Source of the DNA: Clostridia bacterium
GTDB taxonomy: Bacteria > Bacillota > Clostridia > Christensenellales > DTU072
Direction: 5' to 3'
Length of the DNA: 64,000 nucleotides
Assembly: GCA_024685275.1 (NCBI GenBank)
Contig: JAIKVY010000246.1
Coordinates: 10 to 64,009 of the forward strand
The position numbers and the translations under genes are program-made. The notes below the pieces were generated by a model. The model had not been told where the DNA came from and made no database searches. It was given only the letters and a program-made list of their open reading frames with translations. This document shows, piece after piece, positions 7,963 through 53,412 of the stretch (within the stretch, counting starts at the first letter, position 1; every line of letters begins with the position of its first letter).

Positions 7963-8499
7963 TTATTCGCTCTTTTTATCTTCTAATAATTTAATAATTT
8001 CTTTTAATAATTCATTAGTTTCATTATTATCAGCAACTGGAGCTGGAGCAGGTTCTTCAACAGCTGGAGCAGTGGTTTCTTCAACAACAGCTTCGGCTGT
8101 CTCTTCTTTTTTATCAGCTTTTAATTTTTCTAAATTTGATTTTGCTTTTTCAGCAGCCTTAGCAGATGCTTTTCTTAAAGAGTTAAATACTTTAACTATA
8201 ATGAATAAAACGAGAGCTGTTAATAAGAATGTGATAATAGCAGAAATAACAGCACCAAAGTCTAAAATAACAGCAGGTTTAAGAATTTCACCAGCTTCAT
8301 TAAATACAGGTTCTTTTAAAAGAACTTGTAATGCGCTACCATCAGTTCCTGGAATCATATTAAGAAGTGGGGTTAAAATTCCACTTACAACAGCGGTAAT
8401 TATTGCAGTAAATGCTGCACCTATAATCATACCAACTGCAAGATCCATTACATTACCTTTAGAGATAAAATCTTTAAATTCTTTAAATAATTTTTTCAT
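7963..8499 (-). CDS. mscL: Large-conductance mechanosensitive channel MscL (178 aa) with a long acidic/Pro-Ala-rich C-terminal tail
   Basis: MKKLFKEFKDFISKGNVMDLAVGMIIGAAFTAII is the canonical MscL N-terminus/TM1. A GGAGGA RBS lies 7 nt upstream of the ATG at 8499, so the track start at 8514 is an upstream in-frame extension. The tail reads ...EETAEAVVEETTAPAVEEPAPAPVADNNE... Confidence 0.9.
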   Translation of the reverse strand: MKKLFKEFKDFISKGNVMDLAVGMIIGAAFTAIITAVVSGILTPLLNMIPGTDGSALQVLLKEPVFNEAGEILKPAVILDFGAVISAIITFLLTALVLFIIVKVFNSLRKASAKAAEKAKSNLEKLKADKKEETAEAVVEETTAPAVEEPAPAPVADNNETNELLKEIIKLLEDKKSE

Positions 8500-15780: not shown

Positions 15781-15858
15781 ATGAAGAATAGAAAAAAGTT
15801 TTTATCAGTATTTATTTTAATTGTCTGCATAGTACTAGCACTATGCATGGTTGCATGT
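15781..15858 (+). other. Lipoprotein signal peptide with lipobox (cleavage before Cys26)
   Basis: MKNRKKFLSVFILIVCIVLALCMVAC|SERV has a basic n-region, a hydrophobic core and M-V-A-C. It is followed by a G/S linker, NNQGGGSSSGSGQ. Confidence 0.8.
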
Positions 15859-18800
15859 AGTGAAAGAGTAGCAGAAAATGAAGAAAACAATCAAGGTGGC
15901 GGTTCTAGTTCAGGATCAGGACAAGTTGTTGATATCAAAACAGAACCATTAAAGAGTTTCAACGATTTTACAAAAGCAGTTAAGGATTCTTTTGCTGATG
16001 ATTTGGTTGATAAAGGAAATTATGTTGAAGAAGATCAAAATTGGTTAGACATTAACCTTGTTCTTGAATATAAACGTCATGCATATGAAAAAGAAAATGG
16101 TGTTTACACATCAACAGCCAAGAAAACAGTTCATTTCAGAATTATCATTCAGATGAAAATATCCCTTAGGGATAATAGCCAAAGTAGAGCGCTTATTGAG
16201 CTTAATGATGTCTCGAGAAACGTTACCTATCTAGGTTTCTATTACAACAACTCAACAACATATCTAAATGTTGGTGGAAAAAAATACTATACAGAACAAA
16301 TTAACTTAACTGCAATTGGAACATTATTAGTTGATGCTCTTAAATTGACTAATTCTGCAGATAAGACAGATATAGTAGGAATTGTTGTTGATGTCTTACA
16401 AGGTGTAATTCCAGTTGAGTCTATTCAAGGCATTTTATCAACAGCTTGGAAGTTATTCTTGTTCAAAGGCCCATATGATATTACTTATTCAACAGCAACA
16501 ACAACTTTTGATGCGCAGGATGATCAAGGAAGAGTTCAAAAGTACACATACCCAAGATATAGATACATTAACGAATATTTGAATTCAGATTTCATTTTCG
16601 GAATGATTCATCAAGGAAGAATTAGTATTTCTATTGCAAATATTGATTATAAACTTGCATGGACAGAATTTGGTTTACCAGATTTAGACCATATTCTTGA
16701 AGATGTTATTGGGTTTGGTTTGAAAGATATAGTTGAAAAAGATTGGCCAAAAATGAAGATTAGTCTTCATGCTATAACAGAACTTAAGAAAACTAAAAAC
16801 GATGATCCAACATATCATGCTTATAATTATGCATTCAATGGATTTGGTTTGAGTGTTTTAACCGATACTGGAGAATATGATGTCTCTTTGGAAGTAACAC
16901 CATTTGTATTTGGTATAAGAAAAGAAAGTGGAGTTAACGTAGAACTTGGTTCATACAGTTTGAACGATAAAGGAACTGTATATAAGGCAGGAAGTTTTAC
17001 TAACCTTGAAGCAAATCTTAGATTAAGTTTTGATAGTGAAGAAGGCGAAAAATTAACCATCAGTTCTTTGATTGGCAGTAAGGTATTTGATTTAGGCGAT
17101 TTAAGTTCTATGCCTATTAATATCCAAGAAAAAACTCATTACACATTTGATATTGGAATATCCGCGTCACTAGATTTGTTTGAAAATAAGAATAATTATT
17201 TGGATGCAAAAATCAAATACAATGGAAAGAAGATAATAGGTATTTACCTTGTTCCAGATTTAACGCAGACAACAGTTGCTGGTCGAGGAAAATATTTGAG
17301 TTCAATTTATTTAGATTTTGGAAATTTGACAAGTGGTGGACAACCATTCTTCCCATCCACTGTAATTACAGGAATTGATTTAACAACTGCATTATCAACT
17401 CTTATTGGCGAAAATATAATGGGCATTTTAGACCCGTATAGAGGAAAAACCACAGCGACAAGAAATGCTGAAGGCGAAGAAGAAAAGAAGGGTGGTCTAG
17501 ATGTAATGAAATTGATAGGTCTATTAATCTCTGAAAATATAATGACAGATGATTTTGGAAATATCTCTTACGAATACAAATACATTACATTGCCAAAGAA
17601 AAATGGAAGCAAAGTCTTAAAATTTGCATTTGATAACTATGCTATTAACACCATTGTATCAATGTTTATACCAAGCATTACTCCAACTATTAATAGTGCA
17701 GGAGAAACAATATACGAAGATGGAATTGGAATTAAAGGATTATCACTAAGCTTAGATTTTGCGCGACCATTTGATTCAATTAGATTAAATGTTGATATAT
17801 CAGAATATACATCTTTATCACTCGGTATTGGATCAACAAATGCCGATGGAACATATAACACTGGCCTATCTTATTTTGAAATACCACATTTTGATTTATC
17901 AGCAGTAGGCCTTGATTCTAATTTAAAAGTTCCAGATGAAGCAATTGCTAAGAGACTTAGAGGTGAATATAGAGACTTAGATGCAACTTTATCTTATACT
18001 GCTAGTTTGTCAGGAATAATTGAAATTGGATCTACTGAAAACACTGTAATTAATTTAGATTCTCTTGTTCAATACGTTGTTGAACAATTCTTAGATAATT
18101 TAGGGTTATTAGCTCAAATTAAGATTAACTCATCAAGTAATTTGAAGATTAAATACGTTGTTCAGTTAGGTACTGCACTTAGCAACTTAGGAACATCTAT
18201 TTTAGTTTTAGATTTGTACTTGCTAGATGAAGAAAATAAAGAAATTTACACTGCACCTTTCCTTGAATTGTATTATAGGGGAGACACAGACACTATTTAT
18301 ATCACAACAAAAATCAACAATGAAGCTAATATGGTTGACCAACTTAGTTCGCAACTACCATTTATCAAGATTATAGATGGTAATATCCCTAACTTATCTA
18401 TTTCAAATGTTGGAATAGCGAACATGTTAAAAGGAAAAGGTTTTGATATAAGGCCTTTATTTGCAACAATTGGAAAAGATATTGGATCAGGCATTAATAT
18501 TTCAAATGCTGATGTTACACCTACTGAAGATGGTGCTGATGTTGGCGGCGGAAGTAACATTCTTAACATAATTGGCGGAGCATTAAAGGGTATTAATGTT
18601 GAAAATGGAATGCTCGGAATTGTTATAAACGAAGATGTATTAACGATTCTTATGGGAATGTTGAATGTTGGAATTAATGGTGGATTGCCACAAATAAATG
18701 CTCATGTTGATTTACAACTAGGTACACAAAATGAGCTAACAGATAACGGCGAATATTTATACAAGATTACTCATACGGAAAAAGAAATAGATGTAACAAC

Positions 18801-21800
18801 AATTTACTATGTTGATAAAGAAACTGGAGAAACAATTGATTATCAAAATAAAAATGATTTTGGTGAAAACATTGTTTTAGATTCAGAAAAATATACAACA
18901 TTAAAAGTAAACGAGTTATTAAAAGATCACGAGTTTGTAAGAGTTCATTTAGGAATATTAGATAGTAATGGAACAAGAAAAGAAGCGTTCTATATTGATT
19001 GGACTTTAATCGACACAATAAATATTACAAAATCAAATTCAGCTAAACCATTAGCAGCATTTAGTGCTGCAGCATATGTTGATTTAAAGAATTGGGTTAA
19101 TACTTTAGTTGTTTCTGTAAATGTTGAATTGGAATTAGGCATTAGTGCGACAGAAGAAGAATACAATTATACAGATGCATATAACCTCTTATCAGCTTTA
19201 CAATTAGCTGGTCTTGGAGACGCTATTACTCAATTAGCAAAAACCTTACAAATACATGTTGATAACAGATATTTAAAAGAAAATGGCGATGGTGTTGGAA
19301 CACTTTTAGGATTAGCAGTAAAAGGAAATGTAAACATCGGTAATATCTTTGATAGTGAGGTAAGCGTTGTTTTATTTGATAAAACAGTACTTTTACCAGA
19401 TGGTTACAGAGCATCAGATGGAAATACTTATCAAATTATTATTGGGATTTACGTAAAAGATGGCGATGGATATGTCGATTTATCATATCTAGGAGTAAAT
19501 CTTGTTAAAATTAATGACCTTTCACATACATATCAAGGAGTTTTAGCATCAGAATTTGATGCATTATGGAAAGAAAGTTATGAAGAAGTAACAAATTCAG
19601 ATGGCACTCAATCAACAACTGCGTTTATAGATTATGAATATCTATTAAACGAAGTTTATTGCCAAGCTATTTTAGACGAATTCTTGTCTAACCAATATCA
19701 TGAGTATGCGTTTAATGAAGCGACTGGAAAGGGTGAATGGGAAACGAAATATCCTGTATCTAATTATAAGTACATTGTATACAATGACAAACTATTGAAA
19801 GCTGGCCCAGAGGCAGATCAACCTAATTTGTATTATGGAAATTTAGAGGACGATTACATCATTTACATATACGAAACATCAAAACTTATTAATTACTTTG
19901 ATATAGGAACCAATGATAATATTCTCAGATTAAAGAAAGGGTATTCATCATATTTAGTTAATAGCAATGGAACAATAACTGTTAAAAAAGGCAATCAAGA
20001 GGAACAAATTAATACAGTAAACGGAGAAGGTGGTATTCCTATTACCATTAATATCTGGGAACTTCAAAAAGCGATAGAAACAAATGCATATGGTGGATCT
20101 ACATTTGGAGATGGAACTATCTTCTTAAATAAAGTTAAAGCTTCAGCATATTCATTATATTCAACAATAGTATCACAATATGCTGGATATTTTGATAATA
20201 CAAACACTGATGACAATCCAGTTGCTCGAAACAATTTACTTGCAATGTATTGGGAAATAGTAAATGATCAAAAGGAAATTTGGGAAGTTAAATATACAAA
20301 TTCAAGTGATTATTTAACAAGTGCATCTGATTTATCATCAAGAGCTTTAGATAATATTAGAAGTAGATATCCAGAATATAGAGATGCATCAGCTTTAGTA
20401 ATAAGAGAAACAAAATATTACTCTGATGAAATGGAAGTATTGAGAGAGGCTTTAGTAAGAGATTATATAAACGGCTTGGTTTCATCAAATGGTGTAGAAA
20501 CCATGTCAAATAATCTTCTAAAAGCAATAACTGTAATGAAGTTTATGAAGAACAGTACAGATATTGTATTCAATATTGAAAATGCATATGGAGAATATAT
20601 TAAAGCACAAAATCTAGAACTTTCACCAACATCTAGCACAGAAAAATCATCAATTTCAATTGATGGTAAAATAGCTCTTAAATTGATATATGATAGAGGA
20701 GCTATCACATTAGAATTAACAAAGAATGTCTTTGAAACATTATTAACAGCTCTTGGCTTTGGAGAAGTAACAAATTATATTTCTATTGATTATTTAGGAT
20801 TAGGAATTGATTTATCGGATGGATTAAAAGTTCAAATTAAACTACAAGTTGAGGATACATACAGCATTTCACTAGCTATTAATGAATTAAAGGCAAGTTT
20901 AGATGAAAGCAAACGTGAAGATTATGGTTTTGTTATAACAAAAGACTTTACAGAAGGTGGTACAATTGAAGGTATTCCAAATGCTTTCCAAGTACAAGCA
21001 GCTATTGAAATATCTATAGAGAACATATTAAAACAAACGAATACTACTGGAATAAATGATTATGATTTAACGGCATTATTGACAAGATTATTTGGTGGTT
21101 CAGCATTTACAAGAACAGAATTAAGCGAGTTCTTGGCAGAGATAACAAAATTGAATCCTGAATTAACAGAAGACGCTGTAAAAGCAGAAGCATTTAGACG
21201 ATTAATTAGCGATAGTTTAGGAAACGAAAAGAAAACAACTGAAATCAATACTAGAAGTTCTGAAGCTTACACTGAAGCATCAAAGAATGGTGCTCAAAGA
21301 GATTCAGTAGAACATTTATCATTAGCTTGGGATAAATTAGTTGATGGAGCTATTATTCTTGATATCGGAGCTTTGGGTATCGAATTCTTAGTTCAAATTA
21401 TTGGAGATATTAAAGCAGTTCTTACTATTGAAGCTACTGCATATATTGATATTACAGAAATAAGATCAAGTAGTTTACAGGTAGTTTTAAAGAGAACTAT
21501 AGGAAATGAAACAGATGTTGTTCTTACTCTCTATTATGATGGGCGTACAAACACAAGTAAGACAGAGTTTACTGGAGACGTATACATTTCAACAAAGATA
21601 TTTGATATAGGCAATATCAAATTAACAAATGTATCTGCAATTTTCGGAGATATGTTTAAAACATTCAACAGTGAATTTATTGGAGATGTACAAAATTCAG
21701 TATATAAGTTCTTTGGAATAGAAAGAACAGAAGCATCAGGACAAACTCCATCAAACGCTTCAAGCGAAAAAATAAATGCAAATAATGCTGATGGAATGGT

Positions 21801-24800
21801 GACAGCAGCGACAATTATTAATTTAACATTTAATGATTCAAATATAGGAATATCACTAGCTAAAGCATCAATACTTAATTTAATTTATGTATTCTTGAAT
21901 ATTGATTTATCTGAGCAATTATCAGAAATTACTATGGGCTTAGGTATTGATTTAAGATTTGATAAGGATTTATCTGTTTCCGTTGGTATTGATTTAGGAC
22001 ATATTGTTAGTAGAAATAATGAAGAATTAGCTGCTATTATGGATTCTGTTTTAGAAAATAGAGATGGGAATAAGAGTAGTGCTTGGCAAGAATTACAAAC
22101 CATGCTTGTAGAAGTATTGCAACAAGAAGAAGATATATCACCAGAAGCAATAGTAGAAGCCTTTGATACTATCTTAAACGATATTAAATCAAACAATGTA
22201 AGTAAATATGGGACAAAATATTCAGATTCAGAGCTTAGAGAAGTTGCTTGGGATACGGTGTATTGGTTGAGCAAAGGAGTTACTTATGATGAAGCTATAG
22301 AAGTATATCCTGAACCTGGTGAAACTGAAACTAGAATAACCATTGATGTATTCAATATTTTAACCGGAGAACTCATAGATATAAATGGAGATGAGACGAA
22401 AGTTTTAATAAAAGTAGGTAAAATCAACGCTAGTATGAACAAAACTATGCTTGATCCAGATGTTGACTTTGTTGGATTTAAAGAAATGTCTCAAATTGCA
22501 AAGATTGGTCTTGCTTTAGGTGGATACGCACAGTTTGAGATTTCTGGAAATGATAACGGAGAATATAGCTTTGATTATTTGTTTGAATTAGTATATAAAC
22601 AAATATTCGATAACAGAGATCCTGATATCGGATTCCAAGTTGATATAAACGCAAACGATGTATTTGCTCAAACAAACTGGATTGATATTAAGGCAAATGT
22701 TGATTTAACAAAATTAAAAGATTTATCAAATATTGAATTGTATTTATCAATTACATCAGACACAAACCACAAGAAATTTGAGCAATTATCAAAGCTAAGA
22801 GAGTATTTAAAATCTATTGAAGAGGCAAATAACTCATACTACAATGCATGGAATTATGCACATAATGCTTCAATATACCAACAAGGTAATTCAGATTTTG
22901 AAAATCTAGCAATATTAAATGACTATGAACATAATTATAAGGCCTTAGTTGCATTAATGGATGATGTATATGCAAAATATAACGCAATGTACCAAGTATC
23001 ATCTCAAGAAGAGTTATATGAAAAACTATGGAAGCAATTATATGGTATAGTTGGTGACTTCTATTTAGGAAATGTACTTGGATTATATATCATATTAGAT
23101 GATAATGGCGTAGGTAATATTTATTTAGATTTAGCATTTTTAGGAATAGAACCTGTTGTATTAAAAGATGTATCAAAATTCCTCACAAAAATAGGTGAAA
23201 GTTTTGAAATAGATTATCAAAAATTCTTAGATGGATTATTTGGTGGATCAAGCAAAGAAGAAGATGAAGAATCACCAAATAATGCGTATGGTGTTAAAGC
23301 TAAGAATGCTGATGATGAGACTTCTTTAGCAGAACTTGCTCAATTATTAGTTTCTATTAATGCAAATAAAAATAACACATTCTTATTAGTAAAAATTACA
23401 AGTGCAGCTATATATGCATTACTTGAATCTTTTGGTGTTAAAGATATCAAAATGTATTTTGGTGAAGAACCAGAAGAAATAGCTGAAGATGATACAATGA
23501 TTTATCCACAATATTCTCCATCTGGAGAAATTAGATTATTTGGATATCATGAAGATATTGAGGATAATGTTGTAGTTAAGAGATGGTATGATTTATTAAG
23601 CGTCGGTGTTAAATTACAAAATCTAATGTTCTTAGATATTGGTATAATTCAACCTTCATTGGATATTGTAAGGGGAGATATTAGAATTTTACCAAAAGAA
23701 TTTATAGAACAAGACAATAAAGTTGTTTCATATTACACAGAACTTGATGAATGGGAAACAGACTTAAGATTATCTATGGATGGAAGTATAGATGTAATTG
23801 CAGATATGATTACAAACGCTGAAACTGGTTACACAGATGATATTAATCAAATGAATTTAGGACCATTCTTAAGAGAAATATTAGGCGAGCAATTACAATT
23901 AGATATAATTTTACAAACGTTAAGTGATATAGAATTAGATACTCATTTCAATTTACAAATCTCAGTTAATATTCTGAGAATATATCAAGCTTTACAAACT
24001 GATATGTCTAACATGGGAATTGGAGATTATATTGGATTAGTTGGTATTATAGCTCCAGAATTATGTTTGGAAATAATTTCTAGAGATGTAGATACACACA
24101 AAGAAACAGTAATAATGGGTATATATTTGATTAAAGAAACAAATAGATATGGAGAAGAATATTTATCTTTATATGTTGATTTAGGCAAATTACATATTTC
24201 ACCAATTAAAGTAACAAATTTAGTAAAGGTAGCTCCATTATTAATTAATAGTTTCTCTCAATTATTTGCTAATGAAGAAGAGGCTGAAAATGCTGAAAGT
24301 TTACAATTATTGACATATTTCTTAAATTTAACAAGCAAAGCTAGTGAAATTTCTAAATCAAAAGATATTGATTTAAATACGATTAGAAATAGCGCAAAAG
24401 AATATGTTGAATCAAGCGATTTTGTAAGTTTGAGAGAATTAAATAAATTATATGATAACAATGCTAGTGAAGAAGTAATTCAAGAAAAAGTAAATGAAAT
24501 AGTAGATGGCGTTACTAGAGCTAAGAATGCAGAAAGAGAAGCAAAACCTGTTGAAGACTTTATTGCAGTTGTTGTCGGAAATGATTACGGATTTACAATA
24601 GAAGCTGTTGCAGAAGTTTTAATAAAGATTCTCGACGAAGCATTTAATGATATAAAGACAATTGAAAGACGTTCTTTCGAACACATGATGAAAGATGTAA
24701 TTTCTGACGAAATTGAAGTTGAAGCTAGTGGATATAATAGAATTGTAGCTCAAATGAGAACATTACTAGAAGATAGTGATGGGGAAAAGAAATTAGCATG

Positions 24801-27800
24801 GTTGAACGTTATAGAAGAAAGTAGTAATTATTTAGATAATGCGGATAATTTAAAACTAGCAAATGATCTTTATACATCTATTAATAACGTTAATAGAGCT
24901 ATTTACAATAGCAGATATTCAGAAAACAAAATATATGATGTTGCATGGGATGCTTTATTATGGATGTTCGCTGGAATTTCATATGAAGACGCAACTAAAG
25001 TTTATCCAATAGATGCTGGTGGTGATTTAACAGTAATAACAATAGATATATTCAATAGATTAGTAAATGGATACATTAAAATTGAAGATGACGGTGTTCA
25101 AAGTAAATATGATGAATTAAAAGAAAGCGCTAATGACGAGCAAACCATGGATAATGCAATATTGATGAGAGGCTTAGAATACTTCATGTATTATTATGAA
25201 GCAGATGCTTTTGATAAATATGTAGAATATATAAATCAAATGCTTTTCTATATTAATAAATATAAAACAGCACATCATGTTGATGAAGTGCAAGATACAA
25301 GAGTAAATAATGTAAGAAAAGCTGAAGCATATGATGAATTAATTATTAATAATTTCTTAAAGAAAGAAGATAAAGACATATTCACAGCAGAATTTAATAA
25401 GAATTATAGTATTTTAGTAAGCGGGAATGAAACAGTAGCAAAAGCCACCACATGGGATACAATAGTTTCATTCTTTAATGGTGCTTATACCAAATTAGTA
25501 TCAGCTTTAGATTACGTAAATACTAAAGCGAAAGAAATATACAAAACAGAATTTAAAGATAAAGAAAACGATGATTTACCAACTGTATTTAATATCGTTA
25601 ATAGAACATATAAATATGATGCAAATCAAAGTGAAACAGCAAATACTACGTACACTTATAATTCAATAGTTACTATTTTATTCAAAACAGTGGCTTGGGA
25701 ATATTTATTTATAAGTGGACAAGCAGAAAATACAGATGCTAGACCATATAAAACATTATTTGAAGATTTGGCAATCAAAGAATCAAGTAATACACAAGGT
25801 GTTATAGGACAGGCACAAGTAAAAGAATATGCGTGGGAAAAATTAAGAGAAGATGCAGAAAACGTTGCTAAAGGCGTATATCCATATATATTAAGAAACG
25901 ATATAGTTTTAGAAGTAAGTGAAACAGAAAATATTAGTAAATATGGTTTTGGATATACTGTATCTTATTCAAAGAGCACAAAAGATAAAGAGCATGTATG
26001 GGCACTTTACGTAGTAGATACAAACATAGCTAATACATTTGAAGCTTATTTATTGTCAGGTAGTTCAAAACTTCCAGAAATGGTTGTTGAGGCTGCTCAT
26101 GGAACAGGTTCAGCAAAGATTGCATTATTAAATGAAAATAGATTAATAGCTGTAGAAGCAGAACTTGGTAGATTTAAAGTTAAACTTGCATTTAATAGTG
26201 CTGGTTTATATATGTCAAAGAAAGATCTAGTAAAAAATGTTCAAAGAAATAAATTGAATTATGATGAATATACCGAAATTACCGTAGCTGAATTTTTAGC
26301 AGAAGATGAAACAAAATATGCAGAATTTGATGAAAAGAGTCAATACGTATATGCAAAACTAGATTTAGATTTAGAATTAAAAGAAGAACAAACTGATTTC
26401 AATTTCACAGAATTAGTTAGCACTTTACTTGATCAAATTGGTGTTGATTTAGTTATCAATAATAATCAAATTGGAATTGAATTATTATTAAAATTATTAA
26501 CACATCTTGATTCTAAATTTAGATTATCAGTAGAAGCAAGAGTAAATCTATTTAGCTTATTTAAAGGTGATTTATCTACAACAGATATCGCATTAACACT
26601 TTATTCAGGGGAAGGATATAGAGACGTTGTTTTACAAGTTGTTTTAGGATCATATGTTGATGTAAATGATAATAAAGAAAAGAACTTCGTATTTGTAGAT
26701 TTAAGTAGATTTAACATTCAACCATTAATTATTTATGATGCAATTAATTATGTTAGAACACTTCTTGATTCATTAAATTCAAGCAACGCTACATTCTCAC
26801 CATATGATTATAGATACGCAAAGAATGGTGCTGAATTATTTACAGATGTTTTAGCATATGGAATCATGCATACAGCAATGAATGCAGATAATAGTGAAGA
26901 ATATGAAAAGATAGTTCTTGGTTTTGATGATCCTACAGGAGTTGGTGCCTCAATAGAATCTGCAGCAATTTATGTAATTTTGAACCTATTAGGAATGGGA
27001 CAAATTAAAGATTATCTAGAAAAAGCAGCACACATTACTTTAGAAGCTAATATATTTGGTGTTCCAAACTATAGAGATGGAATGAGTTATTCAGATAAGT
27101 ATAGAGACTTAATTAGATTAAGTTTAGCATTAAAAGCATTTGAAGAAGATGGCGGCGTTTCAGCAACGACTGGATTAGAATTAGATTTAGGTATTCATGG
27201 AATAGAATTATCATTGAATCAAAAGAAATATATTCTAGACTTAGATTCTGTTGAAAACCTACAAAATCATTTATTACCGGAAAATTATGCTGAAATTAAT
27301 AATAGCTTACCCCCTATTATTTTATCAACAACGATAATGTTGAATATAGCAGGTGCAGAAACAGAAGAAAGCAATATTAATGTATCACCAATTTCAAATC
27401 TTTTAGATACAATAAATCCAGATTTGTCACCAAGCTTGTCTAATATTATAGGACAAATCTTGTTAAAGATAGTTGATAATAACGCAATGACTGTTGCTAT
27501 TGATTTGAAAGCACAAATATCTTTAGGAAGAGGTGAGGATACAGATTATCTCAACCATATATTAGAAGAATCTATTATTAGAATAGCAATTAGAGCTTGG
27601 TATACATACGAAGAAACAACATCTGATAAGAATAAAGAATGGGCTGTAGTAACATATAGTAATGGTAATTTATATATCGACTTAGAAAATCTTAATATCG
27701 ATAAGATTATGATAAGAGATGCTACAAGCTTAATAATGAAGAAAGACGAAGAGACTCAAAATGCATGGGCAGAAGTAGCTAGATTGTGGAAAGCTGCAAC

Positions 27801-30800
27801 AGGAGACACATCAATTGGTATAGAAGTTGATGCAATTCTAGGAACTCATGGATTGTATATTGCTATGCAAAAAGCAGCAATTAAATCAATAATAAATATA
27901 TTTGGATTTGGTGATGCATTAGTATTTAGAGATGATTTAATTCAAATATATTTGGAAACTAGAAGATTAGATGAAGATCTTTGGATCAATAACAACAAGA
28001 CAATAAGCTTATTTGCTGGAGCAAATATTGCATTCTTGAAAAATGGACAATTTGCTATAGATTCATTAGCAACAGGGCAAATATCAAGTTTAAATCCAGC
28101 AATATTAATTAATTTAGGTCTTGAAGGTATATATATTGGATTTGAAAATAGAGAAAATTGGGATGTTGATAGTCCAGAAAAATATATAGAAGTAAATGAT
28201 ATTAACACAATTAGATTTGGAACAAACTTAAGCTTAGATTTCAGTGATAGTACAGGTATTTATGACTTTAGGGAATTGTTAAATTCAATTCTAGATATGA
28301 CTGATATCGATTTAGCAGGCATTGGTATACAAAAGGATATTAGATTAATATTAGATATTGTTCAAGCAGATATAGCTAATGTATCGGTTAATGCAAGTGT
28401 ATCAGTATATTTAGGAGATTTAATTAGTTCGGCGTTAAGCGGAGCTGGAATTAATATTGATATTGACCAAATAATTGAGAGATTACAGGCAAGTATTGAA
28501 ATTGTATTCAAGAGAGATAATAGCGATGAAAAAGTAACTTCTATTAAGATAGTTTATATTAGAGGCGATGCATACATTGACTTATCTAACTTAAACAAGA
28601 ATTTAGGTAAGGCAAAGGTTGAAGGCGTATTAGATTTAGTTTCTTCTTTAATAGGAGGAAATAGTGAAGCAGCCGAAGCAGCTAATGGATTTGTTAAAGT
28701 AGTTAATGATTATGTAAATTCATTTGTAGCAAAGAATGCAACAGAAGCTATTACACTAGAAGATATAACCAAAACATATATCAGTTTAGCTATGAGTGGA
28801 CAAACCGGATTAGAAATATTGGTTGTATATGGTGCTGTACAAGCCGCTATTAGATATTTATTAGGAAGTGAATCTATTGCTGAAGTTATGGCTATAGTAG
28901 CAACAGCAAGTAACCCATCTTTATCTTTGAATTTAAATAAAAAGGTAGAAATAAGAGTTAATTTAAGTGTTCCATCAAGATTTAAAAATGATGATCAATA
29001 TATAAAATTGACAGCAATAGAAAAATCAATAGAAGAATACTATGATATAGCTGAGGGTATCACGTACGAAGAACAATATTTATCAAGTGGTTCGCAAACA
29101 ATATTCTCAGATACAGTCGGGAGTGGTGAAGATAAAACAATAAAGACTATTATTGAAGATGTAATTAGCAAGTCTTCATTATATAAATTGTTTAATTTAA
29201 CAGATTCAAAGAAGAGTGCGATTGTAGATCAATGGGAAAAAGATGGATTATTGTCATCAATTAATATTAGAAATTATTCAGTAACTGAATGGTTGAGTAG
29301 ATTAGATGCAAAATACATGTTCTATTCTCGTAATGATTGTAAACCACTAGTATTTAATTTGATTGCTTTATATTTGTATGAAGATAAAGCCTCAATTAAC
29401 TTTAATAACTTATTTAGCAACACAATAACAGGATTAAACGTTAGTGTTGATACAAGCTTATCATTAACAGAAGATGAACAAGTTGCTCTATTGCAAGAAT
29501 TAGGTAATTACAAGAAAGTTGAAGGGGAAACATATTATACATTATTCGAATTCTTTAGTGAGTATTTCTCTGGAGAATTTGAAAACGATGATGTTAAGGA
29601 TAGTGATTATAAGACATTTATTAGAGATATTGCTATTAATTACATTAAAGGAGCTATTACATTAAATGCTATTTGGCTTGAAAGCTTAGAAGGCGAAATT
29701 AAAACAATTAGTTTAGATGGTTCATCATATATTATTCACACAGCAAAATATGATGAATATTATGATAAATTGTTAGTAAAAGCATGGGATAAATTAATAG
29801 AAAACTTTGAAAACAAACTTGGTTTAGGGACTATAACAAATAATGAATTGTTATTATATGCTATTGCTCAATTTTCATATGAAAAAGCAAGGAATATCCT
29901 TGATGATAATGCAAGTGAATCAGAGATAAAGAGTGAAGCTTATAATCAATATGTTGAATTTGTTGAAGAATATTCTATTTTAGATTATGAGGGATTGACT
30001 GAGACAACAAATGGAAAATTAAAACAATCAATTATATACAAGAATCTTTTATATACATATTTAGATGCTATTGATGTTGAATTATTAACGGGTATTAATT
30101 TTGATAGTTTCACAGGAAGTTTAAGTAGAACTAAAGAAGAATTAATTGGAGATATTAGGGACATTGTTAAAGGTATTTTATATGGAGTTAGAAAATATTC
30201 ATATGATTTATTAACAAATGTTGATTCTGAATATAGATCTGATTATGAAAGAGTAGTTTTAAGTAGTACAGCAGAACTTGAATTTACATACGATGTTTTA
30301 TATGATATAAAAAATATATATCTAGATGTAATTGAATTATTTGGACAAAGTGATTCAGTAAGTGCTGCAAGAACTATCTTAGTTGATATAGGTCAATATT
30401 TATACAATGAAGAATCAACAATACAGGAAATTACAAGTATCACCAATCCATCAGATTTACATTTATTAAATGCAGCAATAGCTATTTTAGAAAAATACAG
30501 TGCATTATTTAGTAATTTATTTACAGTACAAGATGTTTCAAATTATGTAAATAACACATATAGTGCAGATAGTTGGGATAGTTTATTTGATACATTTGAT
30601 TTCAATGCATATGATACATTTGATGAATTAAAACTTGATGTATTGAGAATTTATTATGAAAATCAATTACAAGCATATGATTTTGGTGCGCTTTATGATA
30701 ATTTAACAATCAAGACATATGAAAATATCTATTCAGTAATTAAAAATAAATATGAAAATGCATTAAGTATTAGGGATGTTAAAGATTGTGATGAGATAAG

Positions 30801-33800
30801 AGGTAAATTATTTAAAGCATATGCTGGTCCAGGAGATAATACTTGGGATAACTTAATATACATTTTATCTAACTACTATTTTGCATACCATAATGCTAAG
30901 AAAATCATTCTTACAGAAGCAAAGACAAATGTAAACAAATACTTAAAGTTATTAGTAAATAATGGAACTGCATTTACTATTGAAAATTATAGTAATACAT
31001 TTAATGGTGAGATTATTAGTTTAAATCTATTAAATGATTACTCAAGTGCAAATATAGTAAATATGGCTCTCGCATTTTTAACAAATCAATATGTAGATAT
31101 TAGTGATGTAAATACTTTAAGAAATATTAATACCACATTTACACAAGCTAGCTCTGATGAATTAGTGTTATATGCAGGATGCTACATTATTTATCAAGAA
31201 TTAAGTGATAATGATACTATTAAAGCAAAGATAGCTAAAGCATATAAAGATTATTCAGAAGGCAATTATGTTAATGGCTTACAAGATGTAAATATTAATT
31301 CTATTCTTGTTATTTTAAATAAGATTTATGAAAGTCTATCGTTTGAAGGAAAATCGTTAGCAAAATTAATAGTTTCGCAATTAATTAGTGTTGGAACAGC
31401 TATTGATCCAGATATATATTTAAACACAGACGAAGAATTAAAAGTAGAAATAGAAAAAATTAATAAAGATTCACTTGTTAAAGAAAGAGCATATAATTTT
31501 ATGATAAGTAGTTCAATTGATTTAGAAATGTATACTCAATTGAATTCTGTAAAACAAAGCATTATTTTTGAACTAATATATCTAAATAATCCACAAGATA
31601 GAAATGATATCAATAATGTATTATTATCATTCTGGAATGGAACTTTAGCTGATGTATTAGTGTCATTTAAGAATAATAAGGCACTTTTAACTGAGACTAA
31701 TATTGATATTTATTATCAAATGTTTGGAAAGATATTCTCAGATACAGCAAAAGAAGAATTATATAAATTATTTACTGAAGTTGATAGCACAACAGGAATG
31801 TATAGACAGATAATAACTATATTTGATAATTTGGTACAAGACACATATGTAGATATTATGACTGATTATGATAAAGCTGTTGTGGTTAGTCGTGTATATG
31901 AAAAACTAAGTGAATATTTACCAGATAACGTAGCAGGAGCACAAAGCGCTGGATATAATGCACTATATGCATTTACAAAGATATTTGTAGATACAATATA
32001 TGATTTCATTAACATTGATTTTGAGGCAATGATAGAGAATATTTTACTTAGCTATGATGATGCTAAATACAAGAATTTAACATCTAACGAAGTATTATCA
32101 TATTATCAAAGCGTTATTAAAGTTGTTGAAGATCAACTTGAAACAATGATTTTCAATCAATTTAAAGATCAAATCAAAACATATGCAGCAAATGAAAATA
32201 ATTTAATTTATCAAGTTGAGAAAACTGCAAAAGATTTCTTGTATATCGATAATGCACCAGTAGGCACACTTGGAGAAGAAGATGAAGGAACTTTATCTGA
32301 TATAACAACAAGTTATAATATTAATCCTGATAATAAAGTTGAAAAGGATGGCGATGACGTTGTTATATATACCAAGGAAGGAAATAATTATAATAAAGTA
32401 ACAGATACAAGTTCATTGACCTCAGGCCAAAAGACATATAACAAATATGATATTACTGCTAAGATTGTGGTTAAATTAGTTCCAACAGTATGTTCTAATA
32501 ATAGTTATCAATTCCCACTAAATGCACCACTAGGATTAACAAGTTTATATACAACTTTACAAAAAACTGTAGATATCACAAAAACAGGACAAAAAGTAAT
32601 AATTGATGGAACAGGATATACTGTATTTGTTGGCTGGGTTGATGACCAAAGCATATTAAGAAAAGATGAAAATGATGAAATTGTTAGCGATGAATTTATT
32701 AAAGAATTAACTATAGAATTAACATATGAAAATTGTGCATGGTTAAATTCAACAGATAACTCATGGGGCTCTGGAAAATGGAGTAGTTATTTCATTGATA
32801 CAACAGATAGTGATAAGAATAATAAATTAAAAGAATTAGGTAATCAATTTATTGAAAAAATAGAAACTGAGCATTCTGATTGGATTTCGGATGCTGTAGC
32901 TAATGCGATTAACACGTTAAAAGCTGAATATTATCAAGCCATACAGGATGTATTAAAATTAGTAGATCTTATAGTCGGAACTGAAGCTGCTCCAGCTGGC
33001 GTAACAGTAGAAACAATAGAAGATAAAGTTGGTTCAGCAACAACATCAGTTGAATTATATGAAAATGCATCAAAATTAATAAAAATCATTTCAGAATGTG
33101 AAAGAATATCAGGAAATGATTATGGTAAAGCTAATTATGAAACGATGTATTCATATAAATTAAATGCCCTTGTTGATTTCTATAATGGGAAAAATGTTGG
33201 AATAAAAACAAACTTCTTAAAAGAAGTTATGTCAGCAACTAACTATAAATTAGCATTTTTAGATTTGGATGAAGTAAATAGTTATAACTTAAATATTATA
33301 GTTGGTGGCATTGAACTTGCTAATTATATAGATATCATTACTAACCTTTCAGAAGCAATGATAGAAGGGTATTTAGAAAGTGAAAATATTGAAGTATTAA
33401 GAGCTAAAGAAAGAAAAGATGTAAGTTCATACTTAGAACAAACACTTAAAAACACATTGTTATCATTTGATGCTGCTAAATATAGAAAAGCATTACATAT
33501 CTTTAAAGAAAAGATGGAAACAACGTTTAACAATAATAATGGTTTCGTTTTCTATTCAGATAGCGACACAATAATTAAATCTAAGAGTAATTACAATTAT
33601 TCACAATTAATAGACAAGATTATTAAAGATGGTGAAAGCATATTATTAAAGAACTATGTTTCAGAAACTAATGCTGGGTATTTGATATTAAATAGTAGAA
33701 TTAATGCTACAGGACAAAAGTTTGGTTCAAACGAAAATTGGTTTAGATTTGCATATAATTTAGTAAAGAGTCAACAATATATTAGTGCTGAAAACTGGAC

Positions 33801-36800: not shown

Positions 36801-39800
36801 AATTGAAGCTTTAATAAGAGGTTCATCAAATGAAATGAGTATCGTTTTGACAGCGGATATTTTAATTGAAGTATTAAGAGCATTAATAACAGATGAATCC
36901 GTTATAGAAAACGTTTCAAACTTGATTTATGTAATCATAACATCAGGAGAAATCGAGATAGAATATGGAAAAGACTTTGGTATTAATTTGAACTTAAGAA
37001 AGAACTTAACACAATCATTAAGTGGTAAGACTAACGTTTCATATAATGTAAATCTTGGATTACTCAAAGATACAGAATTCTCAATGAATAAGAGCGTAAA
37101 GGTAAATGGAATTATTCAAACCACAGAAAACGAGAAATTTATTAACTTCTCTAGAGAATTAGAAACACTTAATAATAGTGGATTCTTTAATAAGTTCCAT
37201 ATTATGACATTAGATGTTGAAAATCTATTGAATACAGCACTCAATGGTGGAGCTGTTAACTTAGATATTGCAACAACATTAGGAAAAGTATTTGGTGATA
37301 GAATCCAAATTGGTATAAGTTTAGAATTTAATGCTGATGTTATGAGAACAATTATTGACTGGAGTGAATTGTTTGGAGTTTTAGGCTCATTAAATATTAA
37401 TCCAGCGTTCTACTTAAGAGTATTTGATAACTTTAAAGGAAACATTAGATTAGATTTATCATTAGACTTTAACGTTGCTTTGTTATCAACTGCTATTAGC
37501 GAAGATGAAGATAGAGTATATAATGCGTTCGATGTTAAGTTAAGAGCATATAGAGGAGATTTAAACATCTTTAACATATATGAATTATCTGGAGTTTTGA
37601 ATACTACAAAAGATAATCCAATATTCTCACCTACATTCTACATGGACTTAGGCGATAGTGGTCCAGAAAAGTATAAAGTTTCATCTAAAGATTTATATGA
37701 ATTCTTACATATTAACTTAGTTGAAATGATGTTGAATATTTTAGGATCTGATGCACATGCTCACGTTGATATTTCAGATGCAAGCAACGCTGATGATGAA
37801 GAAGCACTTAGTGATACTGAACAAGGAATATCAGAAACAATATTAGGATTCGAAGGCGAAAATATTGCAAATCTTGACTTTGGTAAGATTTTAAAGAGTA
37901 TTACCTTTGGTGAAGGGAAATTGGGTATTAGATTGAGTGAAGCTATCGCAAACGAATTAATTAAGATAATTAACAAGAACTGGACATTCGCTGAAATTGG
38001 TAACTTCTCACTTGATATTAACTTTGTTGATAATACAATAGCTCTTAACATTCCACTTGATGCTTCATTAAAAGATTCAAATGGTAATGAACTTGAAAGA
38101 AGTAAATTAAAATATGGTGTTAAGATTAGTAATTTATATGTTTACTTTGGAACAGTAGTTGACTTCTTAGGAGACAATAAGACAGAAGAAGATTTATTTG
38201 CGGATTATCCTGATATTAATGATTATGTATGGATTGAAGAATCTAATTTATCATTAAAGATAACTGATGATGCTAATACTATTGTTGACTTATCAAGTGT
38301 TACATCAAATATTATGTCAGGATTAGAACTTCAAATATTAAGTAATGAAGATATGCTTGATGTAGGTTTAGGATTAACATTAAGAACATATATAGATTTC
38401 TCTGATTTAGCAAACTTACAATTTGAATTAATTATTAAGATAAATGGAAACAGAGCAATTTCAGTTGCATATGTTGGATCAATGGATGATGGAAATGTTT
38501 ATCTAGATTTATCAGGTATAGGTTATCCACAAGTTTATTTGTCTGGTATAAAACTTGGAGATATGCTTAATGATATATTACAAAAATTGTATGATTCATT
38601 TGATAAATCACAAAATACAATAGATTCAAGCAATGCTGCTGGATATGTAAGCGGATCAATATCTAGTGGAGAAGCTACGGCAATTAAATATCCAACAATT
38701 GCTAACGTTGGTATAGGAAATAATATTTTAATAGCTTTAATCGATAGAGATTTGTTTAACGTCGCTATGTCAGGAGCTTTATTAAAAACTCTTATCGGTT
38801 CTTTAACATCATCATTAAACTTCATTCCTGATTTTGCTAACTTACAAGTTGGATATGAACACGATGTAATAAGTGGAATTAAACTTGTTTATGATGAAGG
38901 ACAACATTTTGCTATATCGCTCAACTTTGAACATAGTTATACATACATGGTAACAAGCAAGAACTTAAATGCTAATGTTGAAGCTAAGAGCCATATGCCT
39001 CTTGCTGGAGTTAATAAAGCAGATTATGTATGTATTGATGAATTGAAGAATTTATATCTAAGTCTAAATCTTGAATTATCACTTATAACCATGAATCCAA
39101 ATGGAGATAAGAGTGATACCGTTGAAGAATTAGAAGCTTTATTAGAAAACTTGCTTGGCATGAGTGCAAATTCAGTTGATTTACAATTCCAAGATGCAAA
39201 TGTAATATTAGGCGTTTCAGTAAAAATTGGATTTGATTTAACAAATTATGCAAATTCAGTATTAATCATAGAGATTACATATAACGATGAAACGATTATA
39301 GGTCTTTATTATGTTGAAGGTCAGTTATATGCATCATTATCAGGTTTAGGATTATTTGATATAAAACTAAATGCTGTAGATATTATGAGTGCCTTAAGCG
39401 GCATTTTAACAGGAACAGGATTACCTATTACAAGTGAAGGAATAAAGATAAAAGAAATAATTCTAAATGCTATTAGTTTATTAGAATCTGGCGCTAGAGG
39501 AACTGCTACATGGTCAAAAGATGTTGAAAATACATTAGGTATTGATGATGAATATGCTGAATATTTAAAACAATATAAAGAGAAACACGATAATGGAGAA
39601 TATGAACAATTAACAGCAGCACAAACTGAAACAATAAAATCTACTATTAATAATGAATTAATAGAAATGAACCAAAAATATGGTAATGTATGGAACAGTA
39701 CCAAATTTAGAGAAAAATATGATGAGGTAATGGATACTATTGGATTTGGCGAAGTGGTAGCAACAGATGCTATAACAAAAGCAGGTGGCGTAATAACTGT

Positions 39801-45800: not shown

Positions 45801-48800
45801 TCAAATGAATAAAGCTGTTACAGATATTTTAGTAAGCTATATTCCATTGACAGTAACAAAAACACAAATGGAAAGTGAAAGTTATGATTTATTATATGAA
45901 TCAACAACAAAATATAACATGTTATTCTTAAATAGCATTTATGAAGAAGTAAGCAAGAATCCATTAAATGCAACGACAACTGCTAAGAAAGCAGCTGCAT
46001 GGGAATATTATTACAACTTAGTATCTTCAAAATTAGATGAAAATAGCAATGTAAATCCATATTATGATGTTAAAGTAAAACAACAATTAGATAGCATTTA
46101 TTTAGGTGTACAAGTTAAACACTCTACATTAACATATAATGGAGCTAAAGCAAGATGGTACAACAATACAATTCAAGCAAATGCTGGAGTAATTTCAATT
46201 AATAAACTTGAAGAAGTATACAATACTATAAATAGAAATATTGCTAACGTTCAAAAGACTGTTACAGAAAAGAAAGCATTAGCATATGATGAATGGTACA
46301 ACAATTATACAAGAGGCGAAATCATATTCTACAGAAAAGTAGATGAAAAGATTTTAACAGGTGCTAATTCAATCGTTATTAACGTAGCTGATAAGATGTC
46401 AATAGATAGTAGTGATATTGGCAACAAACTTGAATTCTATTTCAATGGTTTAACAGATGAAAGACAAGCAATTGATGTAATTTGGTATGATAAGGATAAG
46501 ATTGTAGAAAATATTAATAAGAATATTGGATACAATGGATACTTAACATATGGTGATGTTGTAATATTTGATCCATTATTTGGTAACCAAACAAGAAAGA
46601 ATTTAATTATTCAATTAAGTTCAATCGAAATTGTTTCATTCGGTATATCAGCAGCCCTAATGTACAATGGTGACATTGAGAAATTCTTACCTGAATATAT
46701 TATTGAAACAAGCCCAGGCGTTTCATATAGTTATAAAGTTGAATTTAACCCATATGATGAAAGTAGCATTGCAAATCTTTTACAATACTATTTATATGAT
46801 ACAAATGTATCACATTATTACATAATAACATCCACATCTACAGGCGAAACAAAAATAATTAACCAAATAGAAGATGGTGTTAGAATGTTTAAGTTTGCTA
46901 CTGATTCTCAAGGTATGCCAATTTGGAAATATAAGAATGATACAAATGGCGATGGAGATTACACAAATGATGGTTTAAGCTATGATGGAAAGACATATAC
47001 TTCTATTTTAGTTTTAGTACAAAGTGCTAACTATGATGAAGAAAATCCAAGTACACCAAAATGGTCAGCTTGGGTAGAATATGACTTCAATCATGCTTAC
47101 TTTAATGATGCTTCACTTGCTCAAGACAACAGAGTTATAGATTCTACTATTACAAATATAACGAAATTCTACGTTGATGGTTTAAGCGTAGGAACTGATA
47201 TTAGTAAGAGTGGAGATAAATATTATATAACCATCGATCCATCTATTGTTGATTTGTCAAAAGGTTTAACATTTGATGTTGTGACAAAAGGATATAGATT
47301 TATTCCAAAATCAATGGCTGGTGGAGTAACTGAATTTACTAATAGCGACTTTACAAACGTAATGACATTAGCTGGTAGAATAGACCTTGATAATATTGAA
47401 AACTTCTACGAAAAGACATATATTGATACTCAAATTGTATTTGGTGACAAGGTTAACACAATACAAAGAATCAATATAAGATTAATAAATAGTGCTATTT
47501 CTACTATTAAAGAAGCAACAGAAATTATTTACTATGATAAAGATGATAATGTAATAGACTTTAATACTCATGCATATACAGCATTTGAAAATCTTTTAGA
47601 TAGTCTCCCAGTTAGAGCAGATGTAACTGGATTAGTAAATGGATTAAAGAAGACAATATCTATACCAGTTAAATGGGATTATATTGAAGAATATACTAAG
47701 ACAAAGGTAATTGACGATGTTACATATAGAGTAAATAGCCAAGAACAATATCCAAAAGCAAGAGCATATATTGGAAGCAAGACATTTGGATACATTGTAA
47801 GAGAAGTTGAATTAAAGATTAAACAAGAAACAATAACAAGTATTACTGGATTACCAGAAAGAAATACAATAAATGTTGATCCATACAGTAATACTAAGAA
47901 GATGGATGATTTTGCAAGTATTTATACTCAAGCAAGAATTACTACAAGCTTAGGAAATGAGTATGATGTAAGCATTGTTATAGATTCATCTAATATTGAT
48001 TACATGTTATATAAAGAAAACGACTTTGAATCTCAACAATTTACAATCTACTTTAATGTTGGTAATACAGTTAAAACAGAACATTCTAACTTCGATATTA
48101 GACAAGGTTATCCAATTACAGCGATATTAGAGTCTAGAAAAGTAGAATCAATTAAGATATTTGATGAATCAGGTGAAGAAGTATTAGATCCTGTAGGAAA
48201 TATGTATAATCAAATAGACTTTAGTAAATATCATTATGCGGTTATTTACGGCAGCGGAGCAGATGCTGTTAGAGTTGATGATAGTGATGTAACGATTTTA
48301 GGAACTGAAGATATCGAATATAAACCAGCTGGTGGTAGATTCACCATTAAGGCTACAGTAGGTCAAGGAGATTTATTACAAGAATCTCAAATTGAAGTTG
48401 TTATTACAAAAGCTGAATTAATTACTATCGTATATGATGGAGAAGAAAGTGAATTATCTAATACTGGATTTGGTTTAGGAGACGATAATAAGAGCGATTC
48501 TAATAAGATGCTTTCATATAAACATACAACTCTAACTGCTGGTCAAGAATATTATGAATTAGAAAGAATTGTAATTGAACCATTTATTGGATTTGTAGAA
48601 TATGGAAAATATGTTGAAAGCGATTCAATAAAATATGGAGCTGGAATAACGAACACGTCAAGTATTGATTATACTAAGTATGGTTTACCAAATACAATTA
48701 CAGCATGCATTAATATTGGAAACAATGAATATGAGACAATTGAGCTTAATGTTGCTTGGGATTACAAGACTGTATTAGATGATATGACATTAAATGGTGG

Positions 48801-53368: not shown

Positions 53369-53395
53369 TTAGCACTTGAGATATTCGAGTGCTAA
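53369..53395 (+). promoter_or_regulatory. CIRCE operator (HrcA binding site)
   Basis: TTAGCACTT-GAGATATTC-GAGTGCTAA compares with the consensus TTAGCACTC-N9-GAGTGCTAA. It has one mismatch and exact 9-nt spacing. It sits between the -10 and the htpG RBS (GGGAGG, 53401-53406). Confidence 0.85.
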
Positions 53396-53412
53396 TTTAT
53401 GGGAGGCACAAA

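Follow-up and report, generated by a model that had tools for sequence, protein, structure and literature searches.

A 64,000-nucleotide stretch of an uncultured gut Clostridia bacterium of low G+C content (GTDB lineage Bacteria; Bacillota; Clostridia; Christensenellales; DTU072; assembly GCA_024685275.1, contig JAIKVY010000246.1, positions 10 to 64,009, forward strand; hereafter the window) carries a giant gene, whose N-terminal two thirds consist of a strongly diverged repeat interrupted by insertions. The gene is a single open reading frame (ORF) at 15781-53232 on the plus strand (12,483 codons plus stop), free of internal stops. It encodes a protein of 12,483 amino acids (aa) and encloses the region 16261-39384, for which a first-pass annotation, made from the letters alone, had proposed a cryptic super-repeat. 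We confirm that this repeat is real. It consists of at least 14 copies of a module that, judged from its sequence, constitutes an undescribed α/β unit of about 290 aa with a β-hairpin at its centre. Two corrections to the earlier interpretation are required: the recurring motif lies in the middle of the module, and the long spacings between copies are caused by insertions.

The proposal had been based on a short hairpin pattern. All nine peptides quoted for it are found at the positions given, and we located all 14 junction sites, between aa 159 and aa 7848 (listed module by module below). Their spacings are as reported, namely 276-393 aa (0.83-1.18 kb) in compact stretches and 513, 703, 840 and 2667 aa (1.5, 2.1, 2.5 and 8.0 kb) in expanded ones. 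The pattern itself fared less well, since the 14 sites can be placed but its literal regular expression matches only once, at aa 2433. A strict core of the pattern gives four matches compared to 0.024 in shuffled sequences, and a relaxed core (h-[YF]-h-[DSTR]-[LFI]-x-x-[LFI]-[GNHD]-h) gives seven compared to 0.3 +/- 0.5.

Pairwise phmmer searches among the units detect no similarity between modules and recover only a recent copy of an inserted segment. Smith-Waterman comparison of the nine compact units yields positive z-scores in 36 of 36 pairs (mean 2.45, maximum 11.7), and an iterative profile seeded with two units recruits more units above shuffled and locally shuffled controls. A four-orthologue alignment was cut into 200-aa tiles, and all 2,775 tile pairs were compared by hhalign at E<0.01. 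This comparison returned 101 pairs, 78 of which are in register with the junction sites, compared to 4.5% by chance. The central insert appears in just 6 of the 101 matches, though its tiles enter half of all pairs. Matches out of register are mostly due to the recent insert copy, to pairs that register once inserts are allowed for, and to similarities between inserts. Furthermore, we carried out a leave-one-out test, in which a profile omits one module position together with its orthologues and the omitted module is scored against 200 shuffles. Twelve of the 14 modules reach 25-70 bits, with shuffle maxima of at most 11 bits; the two weak members are module 1 (11.2 bits, best shuffle 8.7) and module 3 (7.8 bits, best shuffle 3.1). 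True negative tiles stay at or below 2.9 bits, and all 14 modules exceed all 200 of their shuffles.

The self-similarity is thus significant against shuffled sequence both in the tile comparison and in the leave-one-out profiles. The count of at least 14 diverged modules stands, as each is recovered by profiles blind to it and relatives hold 12-15 copies. A by-product of composition, in which amphipathic β-strands of an AT-rich genome simply look alike, would agree with the absence of unit-unit similarity in the pairwise search and with the single literal match, but the register-specific profile matches, the leave-one-position-out scores, the locally shuffled controls and the 12-15 copies per protein recovered in relatives of 37-53% G+C leave it practically no probability, and we regard it as already refuted. 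Mean-field direct coupling analysis on 335 module copies revealed no ladder pattern, where differences between module positions probably dominate. An origin of the module by internal duplication, with halves of about 145 aa each, was ruled out, as no hhalign matches occur at half-period offsets.

The repeat is shared by a family of giant proteins. An initial genome scan with a single-protein query found no relatives, and a homologue search with a 901-aa query or the four-orthologue profile found one partial protein only. A scan of one genome per species identified three orthologue loci, two in metagenome-assembled genomes (MAGs) of uncultured Clostridia (one labelled Hadza) and one in an uncultured Catabacter MAG. 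Each locus is 22.7 kb long, consists of one open frame and has a G+C content of 45-51%. These three gut-MAG orthologues are colinear with aa 160-7800 of the window protein at 31-40% identity, and the module order is kept. For the family search, a profile built from the 14 copies of the window and two pieces of one database homologue was run against 1.84 billion representative proteins with HMMER. It matched 86 proteins (cluster representatives) at E<=1e-3, of which 26 reach E<=1e-30. The giants among them comprise 6,500-7,900 aa with 12-15 matched stretches each, while most of the short matches appear to be fragments of giant proteins on short contigs. The compact member P0002 holds 14 contiguous modules at aa 90-4160 with a period of about 290 aa, and this compact organization is the norm in the family. 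More distant relatives fetched by the N-terminal region hold 11-13 modules each in their first 4,000 aa. As the window genome has a G+C content of about 29% and the relatives 37-53%, family members differ widely in base composition.

Modules at the same position are 38-42% identical across species, compared to 11-22% between different modules of one protein. The modules therefore duplicated before these lineages diverged, in agreement with the earlier suggestion of an ancient duplication series. Identity to the orthologues is highest in the modules (40-55%) and lowest in the central insert (10-25% over about 2,400 aa). Selection thus acts on the modules rather than on this insert.

Structurally, the opening motif of each module, Y-x-[ED]-h-[DN], precedes a strand, which is followed by a helix (e.g. 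ISNLLDTIN). The middle of the module is formed by three long amphipathic strands ending in the hairpin G-x-h-Y-h-D-L-S-x-h-G, after which a strand and a helix follow. A variable, often acidic linker leads to a further strand and helix (AA-h-x-x-L-L-x-x-h-G) and to three or four closing strands. The unit alignment thereby contains four landmarks beyond the hairpin. An alignment of units running from junction to junction slipped by one repeat, so that junction-centred modules were aligned instead. The first-pass annotation had placed the hairpin motif at the border between modules. We assign it to the module interior, because the mature protein opens with the starting motif (YVEEDQ, aa 81) and because the large insertions fall either in the linker or between the last strands of one module and the starting motif of the next.

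The AlphaFold2 model of module 9, computed with the window's own repeats as alignment, has a mean predicted local distance difference test score (pLDDT) of 58.7. In its N-terminal half (residues 1-178), the score ranges from 63 to 91. This confident half begins with a strand, two helices, a strand, a helix and a strand; the hairpin EWAVVTYS-NG-NLYID comes next, before a third strand and a final long helix. In the region of the hairpin, the score is 83-91, which bears out the β-hairpin signature claimed for the motif. The modelled strands show an alternation of hydrophobic and polar residues, read from the sequence. The model fits an arrangement in which the strands form a sheet with the helices packed over one face, and the helices would then cover its hydrophobic side.

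The array is organized as follows (window coordinates; the first residue given for each module is its start, "junction" is the position of the hairpin motif, and scores are those of the leave-one-out test).

16006..16980, plus strand: module 1 (aa 76-400, junction aa 159), in register with the other modules; 11.2 bits
16981..17952, plus strand: module 2 (aa 401-724, junction aa 508); 32.7 bits
17953..19059, plus strand: module 3 (aa 725-1093, junction aa 837); 7.8 bits
19060..19566, plus strand: module 4, N-terminal half and junction (aa 1094-1262, junction aa 1230); 34.7 bits
19567..20622, plus strand: linker-loop insertion (aa 1263-1614), which splits module 4 after the post-junction helix
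20623..20907, plus strand: module 4, C-terminal half (aa 1615-1709), with the strand and helix VFETLLTALGFG followed by strands; aligns with other C-terminal halves
20908..22005, plus strand: module 5 (aa 1710-2075, junction aa 1933), interrupted by a helical insert (about aa 1776-1845); 53.4 bits
22018..22416, plus strand: recent internal copy (aa 2080-2212) of aa 2985-3110; phmmer E 3e-16, hhalign E 1e-16
22456..23718, plus strand: module 6 (aa 2226-2646, junction aa 2446), interrupted by a helical insert (about aa 2327-2425); 37.9 bits
23719..24285, plus strand: module 7, N-terminal half and junction (aa 2647-2835, junction aa 2796); 31.6 bits
24286..26301, plus strand: insertion following the module 7 junction (aa 2836 to about 3507), holding the source copy aa 2985-3110 (nucleotides 24733-25110)
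26302..27270, plus strand: module 8 (aa 3508-3830, junction aa 3636); 70.4 bits
27271..28167, plus strand: module 9, the modelled one (aa 3831-4129, junction aa 3963); 40.2 bits
28168..28980, plus strand: module 10 (aa 4130-4400, junction aa 4263); 53.1 bits
28981..36204, plus strand: insertion separating modules 10 and 11 (aa 4401-6808, about 2,400 aa), 10-25% identical to the orthologues and with nearly no module-like matches
36205..37239, plus strand: module 11 (aa 6809-7153, junction aa 6930); 24.9 bits
37240..38190, plus strand: module 12 (aa 7154-7470, junction aa 7285); 26.7 bits
38191..39009, plus strand: module 13 (aa 7471-7743, junction aa 7572); 31.5 bits
39010..40050, plus strand: module 14 (aa 7744-7900 and 8000-8090, with an insert of about 100 aa between them; junction aa 7848); 56.3 bits

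Several of these assignments are supported by individual profile matches. For module 3, hhalign pairs aa 732-845 with aa 1823-1940 (E 7e-4). The two halves of module 4 are matched separately, aa 1099-1247 pairing with aa 2652-2814 (E 3e-6) and aa 1633-1695 with aa 2013-2077 (E 1.4e-3). Module 8 lies within the best-conserved stretch of the alignment, with 54% identity to the orthologues at aa 3550-3649 and 38-45% elsewhere in the module. For module 14, the family profile matches aa 7739-7897 and aa 7938-8104. In module 7, the C-terminal half is placed tentatively at about aa 3440-3507, without confidence.

The expanded spacings had been measured correctly, but they result from insertions and not from larger modules, as the period in compact relatives is about 290 aa. 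In the lineage of the window, insertions in loops and between modules have nearly doubled the length of the array, which measures about 8,000 aa instead of about 4,100 aa. The insertion of about 2,400 aa contains 4.3% Gly and 0.8% Pro and is probably helical. In the three orthologues, the stretch aa 2050-2250 consists of about 60-70% gap columns, and BLAST alignments skip aa 2075-2202. Because the copy at aa 2080-2212 is largely missing from these orthologues, we interpret it as a recent duplication into the loop after module 5. The duplicated segment of about 130 aa carries the motif AWD..YW...G.TY.EA..VYP. Weak profile matches (E 0.004-0.009) were also observed among the inserts at aa 1781-1854, 2098-2158 and 2985-3060 (window about 21130-21340, 22070-22250 and 24730-24960). 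The inserted segments may thus include a second, smaller repeat family, as the sequence similarities suggest. Downstream of module 14, we considered a fifteenth module at aa 8095-8380 (window about 40060-40920), which the family profile does not detect. By eye, the segment looks module-like, with LSDYIPDS, IPNLIDSLLNFL and GKGLYLNGDTIDALIKS.

The first-pass annotation had been unable to match the unit to any domain family. The module is indeed without a match in Pfam, NCBIfam or PDB sequences. A search of aa 1-8400 against Pfam and NCBIfam returned no family at E<=0.1 over the module array, and 18 module sequences searched singly against Pfam at E<=10 gave scattered one-off matches only. Among PDB sequences, phmmer and a profile hmmsearch found 0 matches at E<=1 and E<=10. 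Structure comparison with Foldseek is a weak test here, because the module 9 model is reliable for half of the module only; the best PDB structures are platforms resembling those of the major histocompatibility complex (MHC) (E 0.038, template modelling score 0.22), the best match in BFVD has E 0.021, and neither result is significant. DUF4367 was found on the hairpin of module 9 (aa 3948-3996, window 27622-27768) at E 0.052 with 14.5 bits, where the cut-off is 22.1, in 1 of the 18 modules. We defined the previously undescribed domain with its boundaries and collected about 480 copies, which provides database curators with a new family. P0002, with its 14 contiguous modules, offers a compact target for structural biology.

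Outside the array, the giant protein comprises an N-terminal signal and a long C-terminal part, which is followed in the genome by htpG.

15781..15858, plus strand: lipoprotein signal peptide and lipobox (...LALCMVAC, then S), predicted lipidated residue Cys26
40927..41055, plus strand: CarboxypepD_reg domain (PF13620; aa 8383-8425; E 1.4e-10, 41.8 bits, cut-off 32.3)
41056..53229, plus strand: β-rich C-terminal region of about 4,060 aa, probably conserved in the family, without a Pfam match above threshold
53389-55263, downstream of the giant gene: htpG (Hsp90 match, E 1.6e-108)

The N-terminus (MKNRKKFLSVFILIVCIVLALCMVAC, then SE) shows a lipoprotein-type signal with a positive n-region, a hydrophobic h-region and a lipobox with its Cys. 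Residues -3 to +1 of the lipobox, M-V-A-C, agree with the Gram-positive lipobox pattern. Cys26 is invariant in an alignment of six family proteins. An equivalent lipoprotein signal is located at the start of every full-length relative, and all of the distant relatives fetched by the N-terminal region carry one. The giant protein is accordingly a predicted bacterial lipoprotein and putative substrate of Lgt and signal peptidase II, with lipidation and cleavage predicted. The signal peptide is also its sole strong hydrophobic segment (Kyte-Doolittle 3.2). At the C-terminus (...EVMVRIKKEI), neither an LPXTG motif nor a membrane helix is found. A cluster of moderately hydrophobic segments lies at aa 9033-9142 (window about 42880-43210), with Kyte-Doolittle values of 1.6-1.7, well under that of the signal peptide. 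Overall, the protein is acidic, with about 15% D+E and about 8.5% K+R.

CarboxypepD_reg is the only Pfam domain above cut-off in the giant protein, and it lies outside the repeat. In the part that follows the array, weak immunoglobulin-like matches were found to Big_1 (E 6e-4, overlapping CarboxypepD_reg) and Big_4 (E 0.015), both below cut-off. The C-terminal region shares, by eye, NKW-F...YA-LTLGG...W-F with the C-terminal parts of P0002 and P0003, and these shared motifs point to homology between the three. Inspection by eye of the same region (41056-53229) also revealed a recurring h-x-h-DPY and many β-rich segments of about 100-150 aa. As the self-similarity of this region is only weak (E about 1), a second repeat there is unproven.

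Taking these features together, we favour, with modest confidence, a reading of the giant lipoprotein as a lipid-anchored cell-surface fibre, in which a stalk of 14 modules carries the β-rich C-terminal part of about 4,060 aa. The protein would be exported by the Sec pathway and lipidated at Cys26, and this lipid would anchor it on the outside of the cytoplasmic membrane. The 14 modules would form a long, fairly stiff stalk with a fixed number of modules, and this stalk would carry CarboxypepD_reg and the C-terminal region through and beyond the cell wall. We postulate that the displayed C-terminal region would there bind a partner, either a surface or a polymer.

Several observations weigh against the fibre. 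We only infer that the modules stack into a rod and that the C-terminal part binds a partner. Structure prediction, which the first-pass annotation had proposed for single and double units, was partly confident for the single module 9, but the C-terminal half of that model has pLDDT values below 50 and a model of 2.5 modules (two-sequence alignment) reaches a pLDDT of only 33.6. No Pfam adhesin domain was found above cut-off in the giant protein. Finally, a gene block that precedes the giant gene in distant relatives is not next to it in the window, and the nearest relative (locus L008) is likewise without it.

This block was observed in the approximately 10 kb upstream of the giant gene in loci L009-L018. 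It is conserved on the same strand in five distant lineages with 32-40% mutual identity and 37-53% G+C. It encodes one or two lipoproteins (1,000-1,150 aa) in which Big_2 is combined with a transglutaminase-like core. A PIG-L family deacetylase, a ROK-like protein and a protein of about 280 aa without signal peptide or Pfam match are encoded there as well. The large Big_2/transglutaminase-like lipoproteins suggest envelope-related neighbours in these distant relatives, and together with the PIG-L deacetylase they make the function of the giant protein testable.

The block also supplies the evidence for a first alternative, in which the protein is a surface scaffold that captures or processes a polymer, its modules or loop inserts binding the ligand in cooperation with amino-sugar or envelope enzymes. 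In favour of such a scaffold, five lineages distant from one another have kept the block ahead of the giant gene and on its strand, and the conserved module number could also reflect function. We nevertheless consider it unlikely. The block is absent beside the giant gene in the window and in L008, the ROK match within it is weak (E 9e-8, 32 bits), and the module shows no recognised binding site or catalytic motif. Furthermore, a gap of 250-1,300 bp separates the block from the giant gene, which may therefore have its own promoter.

Doubtful to a similar degree is an envelope scaffold or ruler that runs along the membrane or within the wall, for example as a sheet or lattice resembling a surface layer (S-layer), instead of projecting as a fibre. 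The lipid anchor, the fixed module number and the acidic composition are compatible with such a structure, as is the fact that no recognisable adhesin tip was found. However, Pfam scans detected no S-layer-homology or wall-binding domain, the gene is single-copy and rare (86 cluster representatives in 1.84 billion proteins), and there is no sign of self-assembly.

We assign a similarly low probability to a more far-reaching interpretation, namely that the module, with its about 290 aa, adopts a truly new fold and that the array is a new lipid-anchored envelope machine of gut Clostridia rather than a passive stalk. If this were true, the array might for instance take part in capturing, cross-linking or remodelling a glycan or wall polymer, together with the PIG-L deacetylase and the transglutaminase-like lipoproteins, whose genes neighbour the giant gene in most lineages.

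The least supported of the functional alternatives is a conduit or chain of cavities for lipids or hydrophobic molecules, comparable to a repeating β-groove, AsmA-like bridges or LolA-like half-barrels, which we regard as highly improbable. The long, strongly amphipathic strands and the great length of this membrane-anchored protein would suit a conduit, as would the weak DUF4367 match over the hairpin of module 9, a family that belongs to the LolA-like clan. That match is under the cut-off and confined to one of 18 modules, however, and no AsmA, TamB, DUF490, VPS13 or LolA family is matched. In the modelled half, helices alternate with strands; Foldseek finds no groove structure, and its weak best folds (MHC-like) are sheet-plus-helix platforms and not grooves. 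VPS13, TamB and YhdP are likewise long, membrane-anchored proteins with repeated amphipathic β-strand units punctuated by helices, but they share no family match with the window protein, whose partial module model points to a sheet with helices on one face and not to an open groove. The units of these proteins are about half the size of the module, and such proteins bridge two membranes. Clostridia, the label given to the related genomes, mostly have a single membrane, so that a second one to be bridged is not expected.

The closest known counterparts of the window protein are true homologues. Two family members from Clostridia and Bacillota MAGs, MFA5448907.1 and MCL2629995.1, are labelled by NCBI as 'carboxypeptidase-like regulatory domain-containing protein'. 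They share the lipoprotein signal, 12-15 modules, CarboxypepD_reg and, judging from common motifs, the C-terminal region with the window protein. Compared to these uncharacterised giants of 6,500-7,900 aa, in which the modules are mostly contiguous and unannotated, the window protein of 12,483 aa is longer because of its insertions.

More remote comparisons are restricted to overall architecture. The modules of Ebh and Embp are short helical FIVAR/GA units, whereas the window protein has an α/β module of about 290 aa and an N-terminal lipid anchor instead of a sortase signal. No FIVAR/GA, Big or cadherin-like domains (Ebh/Embp or Bap/SiiE type) were found in it above cut-off. There is no sequence relationship to Ebh, Embp or Giant1-5 of Apilactobacillus kunkeei, none of whose domains were detected in it. 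Staphylococcal Ebh/Embp and Giant1-5 are very large, elongated extracellular proteins with many tandem domains, and such Gram-positive giant surface proteins have roles in adhesion or cell-to-cell interaction (PMC9302970, PMC12863079). Giant1-4 carry an N-terminal β-solenoid (PMC12863079). By analogy, the window protein works most plausibly like these giant repeat-built surface proteins of Gram-positive bacteria. ORFs of comparable or greater size, metagenome-only and mostly unannotated, are described for Omnitrophota and other uncultured bacteria (bioRxiv 10.1101/2023.11.21.568195). These giants belong to another phylum, and none is among the 86 family matches, as far as names allow.

The repeat thus represents a new domain and a new family of giant proteins within a familiar kind, that of giant repeat-built surface proteins. 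With 12,483 residues, the window protein is among the largest bacterial proteins, and more than 99% of its sequence is without annotation. The family is a rare one of giant lipoproteins whose named sources are uncultured Clostridia and Bacillota, some of them from human gut samples, and it provides a candidate surface structure for poorly known gut bacteria. The finding by itself settles no long-standing question.

In the window, the neighbours of the giant gene are ordinary cellular genes. Upstream, on the other strand, mscL, an HD-domain gene, the gene of a CCA-adding enzyme, hpt, tilS and the genes of an iron alcohol dehydrogenase, a HAD and a LOG protein were recognised from their translations only. 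A sister species with 86% identity in HtpG likewise has the end of a giant ORF directly upstream of htpG. The genes after htpG are common to both, comprising a metallophosphoesterase, a peroxidase, a thioredoxin reductase, a thioredoxin, MarR and a copper ATPase. At a distance of 8.5 kb, the giant gene is preceded by a second very large ORF (10-7302, plus strand, 2,430 aa), which has no signal peptide. We considered it as the counterpart of the transglutaminase-like neighbour of the relatives, but comparison shows no relation, and against Pfam it matches no family at E<0.05. By eye, its C-terminal approximately 250 aa resemble right-handed β-helix repeats.

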